19,380 nucleotides of DNA from Escherichia coli (GTDB lineage: Bacteria; Pseudomonadota; Gammaproteobacteria; Enterobacterales; Enterobacteriaceae): assembly GCF_003334355.1 (NCBI RefSeq), contig NZ_QOWP01000048.1. One strand, 5' to 3'. The notes under the pieces are model-generated. The model ran no database searches. It was not told the DNA's origin and saw only the letters and a list, made by a program, of their open reading frames with translations. The position numbers and the translations under genes are program-made. Shown here piece after piece: positions 19,032 to 19,202 of this stretch (position 1 is its first letter; the number at the start of each line of letters is the position of its first letter).

Positions 19032-19202
19032 TTATTGATAAACAAAAGTCACGCCAATAATCGATTGCACATTCCCTGCAGTCACCTGCCCTCCGGTACG
19101 TGCGTAATTTGCCGTTAATCCCAGACTTACCGCCGAAGTCCCTACTGCTCCTAACGATACCGTGTTATTCGCTGGAATAATCGTACCGTTGCGCATCAAC
19201 TG
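19032..19202 (-). pseudogene. fimH: fimH 3' remnant (C-terminal 56 codons of the type 1 fimbrial adhesin), truncated by IS1 insertion
   Basis: Minus-strand translation reads QLMRNGTIIPANNTVSLGAVGTSAVSLGLTANYARTGGQVTAGNVQSIIGVTFVYQ*, matching the FimH C-terminus as recalled. The frame is cut exactly at the IS1 terminus (19202/19203). Confidence 0.85.

Follow-up and report, generated by a model that had tools for sequence, protein, structure and literature searches.

The window, by which we mean the whole stretch of DNA analysed (19,380 bp), is the complete short-read contig QOWP01000048.1 of assembly GCA_003334355.1 and stops 178 nt inside an IS1 element; the contig was recognized by a rare YjiN variant (N380), and its first 12,890 bp match the window without a difference. 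Its right end is very probably a copy of a widespread, previously described deletion scar, Δ(fimB-fimH nt 732)::IS1, in which gntP, a 171-nt tail of fimH, IS1 and nanC follow each other in this order and which probably spread between lineages by recombination. The scar is real, ordinary and already published, and its probable identity by descent and spread are only modestly new as an angle. The features that carry the argument are listed below.

gntP, 17515-18858, plus strand: conserved chromosomal neighbour, with the right crossover of a recombination patch (18792-18835) in its last 70 nt
gntP-fimH intergenic spacer, 18859-19031, no strand assigned: 042-type haplotype, contiguous with the scar
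fimH pseudogene remnant, 19032-19202, minus strand: fimH nt 733-903, that is, precursor codons 245-300 and the stop codon
Nucleotide substitution marking the scar allele, 19195: fimH C740T, ACG to ATG, T247M (precursor numbering) or T226M (mature numbering), located 7 nt away from IS1; the window base is A
IS1A-type left end, 19203-19380, plus strand: left inverted repeat, promoter-like site and insA start, cut by the contig end
T4 run (T5 in other IS1A copies), 19242-19245, plus strand: 1-nt deletion, so that the scar IS1 is 767 bp and not 768 bp long

The fimH Remnant and Its Junction with IS1

The remnant consists of 56 sense codons and the stop codon TAA (19032-19034), 171 nt altogether, and the minus-strand translation of 19032-19202 reads QLMRNGTIIPANNTVSLGAVGTSAVSLGLTANYARTGGQVTAGNVQSIIGVTFVYQ followed by the stop. 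In the alignment with fimH of K-12, homology extends from the gntP-proximal spacer through the stop codon and terminates at 19202, which corresponds to fimH nt 733 and opens codon 245. The remnant peptide matches mature residues 224-279 (precursor 245-300) of solved FimH structures with 55/56 identity (E = 6e-28). The K-12 alignment and the translation thus confirm the extent of the remnant and the count of the last 56 fimH codons given in the earlier note, which had also proposed the loss of the lectin domain. The remnant indeed begins only at precursor codon 245 and has neither a start codon of its own, nor the signal peptide, nor the mannose-binding lectin domain (PF09160; residues 1 to about 158 of the mature protein). 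What its peptide retains is the C-terminal 56 residues of the pilin domain; about half of that domain is gone, and of a complete pilin domain (mature residues about 160-279) only residues 224-279 are left. PF09160 is present on the 300-aa product of intact neighbours, while the 54-55 aa open reading frame (ORF) of the remnant has no Pfam match on record. In relatives, RefSeq labels the remnant as 'fimbrial protein, incomplete, missing N-terminus' and annotates it as a pseudogene.

The remnant is convergent with gntP, and its gntP side is native, whereas its fimG side has been replaced by IS1; because gntP is a conserved chromosomal neighbour, the remnant lies at the native fim locus. The canonical 23-bp left inverted repeat of IS1 (GGTGATGCTGCCAACTTACTGAT) matches exactly at 19203-19225, so that the remnant directly abuts the IS1 terminus, again as the earlier note had it. 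The repeat overlaps a promoter-like site of insA on the plus strand (19210-19237), and the GTG start codon of insA follows at 19257. Over its 178 nt within the window, IS1 shows one to two mismatches to annotated IS1A copies, and the element is annotated in relatives as an IS1A family transposase; there it is 767 bp long, ends in a right repeat and encodes a product carrying PF03811, PF12759, and PF03400. The breakpoint is unambiguous, because the K-12 base that follows CAACTG is T, and here it is the G of the IS1 repeat. In a collection of 5,426 complete E. coli genomes (no Shigella chromosomes), a 521-nt sequence spanning the junction is contiguous in 363 (about 7%), therefore the junction is not an assembly artefact.

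The C740T substitution creates an in-frame ATG, and therefore gene callers place a 54-55 aa ORF at the remnant. Public gene calls for 19032-19199 give a protein of either 54 or 55 aa, starting at this ATG or at the preceding TTG. In the assembly collection, 176 blocks index the 54-aa version and 118 the 55-aa version; these calls are a recurrent annotation artefact. The ORF is a pseudogene fragment, and the 56-codon tail is dead. A functional small gene starting from the new ATG was considered and rejected, since no promoter-like site reads into the remnant: neither a sigma-70-like site nor a terminator with that orientation was found, and the sole promoter-like site is that of IS1 itself, on the plus strand. 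We regard the ATG as incidental. The Rfam scan of the whole window returned no match.

The Far Side of IS1 and the Extent of the Deletion

Assemblers break at such repeats, and for this reason the window cannot show the DNA beyond IS1, which is visible in its relatives. In EAEC 042, the 767-bp IS1 is followed by the nanC-fimB spacer (CAACTAATCTTATCTATATATC), starting 264 bp upstream of the fimB start codon. Compared with K-12, 8,846 bp are missing from 042, comprising fimB, fimE, the fimS switch, fimAICDFG, and fimH nt 1-732, and IS1 stands in their place. This right junction, from IS1 into the nanC-fimB spacer, occurs in about 333 complete genomes. The left junction is more constant, its 60 nt (TGGAATAATCGTACCGTTGCGCATCAACTGGGTGATGCTGCCAACTTACTGATTTAGTGT) being base-identical in 20 out of 20 further public loci, whatever comes after IS1. 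In roughly 8% of the scar carriers, the DNA past IS1 is not of the nanC type. About 31 genomes show the O104:H4/55989 type, an island common to the O104:H4 outbreak strains and EAEC 55989; the other far sides are the virK'-lpxM + IS3 type, the fec operon, a plasmid-like Rep/MobA segment, and another context.

Two of these contexts have features of their own. In CFSAN061761 (locus L001, 13111-15672) and at locus L032, IS1 is followed by a cut-short virK gene (DUF535), a gene for an lpxM/msbB-like acyltransferase, and an IS3 element, an arrangement that is chromosomal and has few carriers. This virK-lpxM pairing presumably resembles the virK-msbB2 module of Shigella and EAEC virulence plasmids. 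In GCA_004569965.1 (locus L025, 1-6015), plasmid-type genes (Replicase PF03090 and MobA/MobL) lie directly past the scar IS1, which suggests an IS1-mediated integration of a small plasmid at the scar.

The flanks of IS1 in 042 (...ATCAACTG and CAACTAATC...) show no target-site duplication of 8-9 bp, as expected of a deletion derivative. The nanC-type carriers have CAACT in both IS1 flanks, offset by one base (19197-19202 in the window; 34969-34973 at locus L002, where the right end of IS1 is at 34968). This 5-nt direct repeat is too short for an IS1 target duplication; it could be due to chance (roughly 0.3%, a crude estimate) or could be a trace of the formation of the deletion.

The earlier note ascribed the truncation of fimH to an insertion of IS1, a reading that gives way to a whole-operon deletion, as the far side of IS1 in relatives is never fimH and, where the right junction is of the 042 type, 8,846 bp are replaced by the element. 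Under a simple insertion with fim otherwise intact, IS1 would be followed by the 5' 732 nt of fimH and then by fimG through fimB, with a 9-bp target duplication. The window itself stops inside IS1, and IS1 insertions in fimD and fimI of Shigella are on record (PMC4374849); however, a chimeric query joining the right end of IS1 to fimH nt 741 to 542 had no contiguous counterpart in any of the 5,426 genomes, its only two matches with at least 80% coverage being split pieces with IS1 at other positions. Moreover, all 26 examined copies of the exact left junction have non-fimH DNA past IS1, and the window has the same allele-specific substitution and the same IS1 variant as the deletion carriers, so that a simple insertion is very unlikely here. 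A precursor allele with IS1 at either breakpoint and fim retained was not found among the 5,426 genomes; a search for IS1 at the fimB-upstream breakpoint with fimB still attached gave only nearby, non-identical IS1 insertions in the AT-rich nanC-fimB spacer, in 11 genomes.

An IS1-mediated inversion or translocation, by which the rest of fim survives elsewhere beside another IS1 and is merely split from its 3' tail, appears slightly less probable still. Several IS1 copies are present in the strain, with one at either end of the contig, and the variable contexts at the IS1 right end among carriers point to ongoing IS1-driven rearrangement. Such an event would nevertheless create a junction between IS1 and fimH nt ≤741, of which there is none in the complete genomes. 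In addition, of the 5,426 genomes, 4,996 contain fimH nt 1-732 and 430 do not; the 430 are enough to cover all 363 carriers, a comparison of totals that is compatible with disjoint sets. Published data agree, since genome-wide BLAST gave only the 171-bp match in 042, 55989, O104:H4, and ST648 (PMC8281228), and ST167 clades B and C are without fimD (PMC12405470). Returning to the whole-operon deletion, we infer that the far side of IS1 in this strain is the same as in its relatives.

Background of the Window and a Recombination Patch

Compared with 042, the first 15 kb of the window show 4 differences, and the stretch from ~15,300 to 18,800 shows about 86. The latter segment, which contains the 5' part of uxuB, uxuA, and gntP, has at most 2 differences from the haplotype of the fim-intact strains SUISSEKPC3NDM5 and CFSAN061772. 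One of its bounding crossovers is placed near 15,300, inside uxuB, and the other in the final 70 nt of gntP (18792-18835). The window then returns to the 042 type: over 18835-19202, it agrees with 042, TUM17668, and CFSAN061761 at all variable sites except 19014. By its sequence, the strain would be a 042-type scar carrier that later acquired 3.5 kb of uxuB-gntP sequence from a lineage with an intact fim operon; this mosaic was found in no complete genome searched. The UxuB protein of the window is a very common one and is encoded on fim-intact contigs. A Shigella origin of the window was also considered and rejected, with the first 15 kb being only 4 positions off 042 and no match among the lesions catalogued in PMC4374849.

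Several minor features of the window were noted in the course of these comparisons. The gntP-fimH spacer has 14 nt (18890-18903) where K-12 has 83 nt (locus L003, 11840-11922), an indel amid REP-like palindromes. The ORF of yjiC (DUF2686; 12646-13224) encodes 192 aa vs. 276 aa in K-12; the gene is a frameshifted pseudogene in 042, TUM17668, WCHEC005784, and ST648, and it is intact in the scar carriers HUSEC2011 (O104:H4) and CFSAN061761. A second IS1, divergent from the scar IS1 (about 91% identity), contributes its terminus to the left end of the contig (1-77), with the left-repeat side in minus orientation. This divergent IS1 is annotated as a frameshifted pseudogene in 042, TUM17668, and WCHEC005784, where it lies beside brnTA, and at its position K-12 has a ~19-kb immigration-control region (rpnD through mcrBC, hsdSMR, mrr) between mdtM and yjiA.

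Probable Single Origin and Proposed Spread between Lineages

The 171-nt remnant is identical in all IS1-adjacent copies examined, comprising 26 loci and the window. The C740T site reads ATG in 26/26 IS1-adjacent remnants and ACG in 13/13 uninterrupted fimH copies, although 20 of these 26 loci were retrieved by an exact match to the Met-containing ORF, which precludes the ancestral base among them. The independently found loci of 042, TUM17668, CFSAN061761, WCHEC005784, and ST648 also carry C740T, and the Thr version of the ORF occurs only in frameshifted full-length fimH, never adjoining IS1. The second marker lies on the other side of the junction: the T4 run is present in 26/26 scar IS1 copies and in the window, while T5 is found in 5/5 other IS1A-like copies of the same loci, three of which, those with the right end in reach, are 768 bp long. 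The identical remnant, C740T, and the T4 IS1 together point to a single origin.

The scar carriers belong to several lineages, including phylogroup D (042, ST414), phylogroup B1 (55989, O104:H4, ST678), and phylogroup F (ST648) (PMC8281228). WCHEC005784 has been assigned to the ST10 complex or 'K-12 clade' of phylogroup A (PMC6392093), and the literature likewise puts the carrier 675SK2 in the ST10 complex or 'K-12 clade.' WCHEC005784 carries the exact scar with a nanC-type far side, and over about 30 kb around the scar it is 99.7-100% identical to 042, whereas the identity of K-12 is only 94-99%. Beside the scar, HUSEC2011 (B1) and ST648 (F) likewise reach 99.8-100% identity with 042. The near-identical flanking block in different phylogroups suggests that the scar moved laterally with this block by homologous recombination. 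The published accounts considered here noted the patchy distribution of the scar; identity by descent or lateral spread was not demonstrated in them.

Recurrent independent insertions of IS1 at a fimH hotspot with parallel deletions, to which the presence of the scar in phylogroups A, B1, D, and F and the insertions at other nearby positions of the nanC-fimB spacer in 11 genomes (a repeated target) would lend themselves, are likewise highly improbable in view of the base-exact left junction common to all carriers and the same right junction in about 333 genomes, the identical remnant with a substitution absent from 13/13 uninterrupted fimH copies and an IS1 1-nt deletion absent from other copies, and flanks whose identity between phylogroups is 99.7-100%, against a divergence of 1-6% in K-12.

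We propose the following history, in which the scar arose once. In a single ancestral event, an IS1A-type element would have set its left end at fimH nt 732/733, and the subsequent loss of 8.8 kb up to a site 264 bp upstream of fimB would have left gntP, the 171-nt fimH tail, IS1, and nanC. IS1 is known to promote adjacent deletions. The deletion presumably occurred either by such intramolecular transposition of IS1 or by recombination between two IS1 copies. The scar allele would then have passed between E. coli lineages via homologous recombination of the surrounding block, and in some lineages the right end of IS1 would have undergone further rearrangements. The strain of QOWP01000048.1 would carry the 042-type version of the scar together with the 3.5-kb uxuB-gntP patch re-imported from a fim-intact haplotype.

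We consider it likely that the scar copies are identical by descent from one event, as marked by C740T and the T4 IS1, and that blocks as long as about 30 kb carried them into at least four phylogroups, which would imply repeated selection against type 1 fimbriae, with the window being a secondary recombinant that kept the scar and re-imported a fim-intact uxuB-gntP patch by a crossover about 25-65 bp from the gntP stop codon. Taken jointly with identity by descent, and with the same good though not full confidence, this spread would have reached EAEC, O104:H4, the multidrug-resistant ST648, and the ST167/ST10 complex. In terms of population genetics, the locus offers one deletion allele with two marker mutations, apparently spread by recombination across phylogroups including several notorious clones.

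Consequences and Relation to Described Losses of fim

The production of type 1 fimbriae requires the fim recombinases, the switch promoter, FimA, FimC, FimD, and FimH. Since the recombinases, the switch, the major pilin, the chaperone, the usher, and the adhesin are all lost, scar carriers cannot make type 1 fimbriae, and judging from its junction the strain studied here would have lost them as well. Scar strains are fimH-null in FimH typing. They would also escape FimH-targeted vaccines and mannoside drugs, a point that has been made for ST167 (PMC12405470).

The scar has been described before. EAEC and EAHEC were reported to be entirely without a fim operon except for a partial 171 bp fimH match interrupted by IS1 (Clark & Maresso, 2021, Infect Immun; PMC8281228). 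The same study found the 171-bp remnant in ST648 and ETEC 90-9281 and suggested that the 'fim operon' reported for 042 in an older paper was a misidentified F9 or sfm cluster (PMC8281228). The remnant in 042, 55989, O104:H4, ST648, and ETEC 90-9281 has the same length of 171 bp, the same site beside gntP, and the same IS1 partner as that in the window, and the junction and remnant of the window are base-identical to those of 042, HUSEC2011, and ST648. The window differs from the strains of that study in the adjoining 3.5 kb, from the 5' end of uxuB through gntP, which are swapped for a haplotype otherwise found in fim-intact strains. The fim deletion is not taken up in the main text of either the 042 genome paper or the chaperone-usher survey. 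In ST167, described in 2025, IS1A likewise stands in place of the fim operon, and two fim-less strains colonized the mouse bladder poorly in comparison with CFT073 (PMC12405470); the background of the window, however, is 042-like (phylogroup D) and not that of ST167.

The parallel with Shigella that the earlier note had drawn holds in a generic sense only. Type 1 fimbriae were lost through IS-associated inactivation at the same locus in Shigella and EIEC (PMC4374849; PMC12511311), and S. sonnei lineage 3 is without a region of roughly 9.3 kb between gntP and nanC (PMC12511311). The Shigella lesions lie elsewhere, however, namely IS1 in codon 221 of fimD and in codon 35 of fimI, IS629 in codon 264 of fimH, and nonsense mutations (Bravo et al., 2015; PMC4374849); none of those catalogued is an IS1 at fimH codon 245, and the window is 042-like. 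The loss may be pathoadaptive, as the earlier note called it. The closest resemblance in mechanism is to the adjacent deletions made by IS1, which likewise keep one copy of the element, lose the DNA on one side of it, and have no target-site duplication; the fixed left junction of the scar and its variable right contexts fit repeated activity at one end of the IS.
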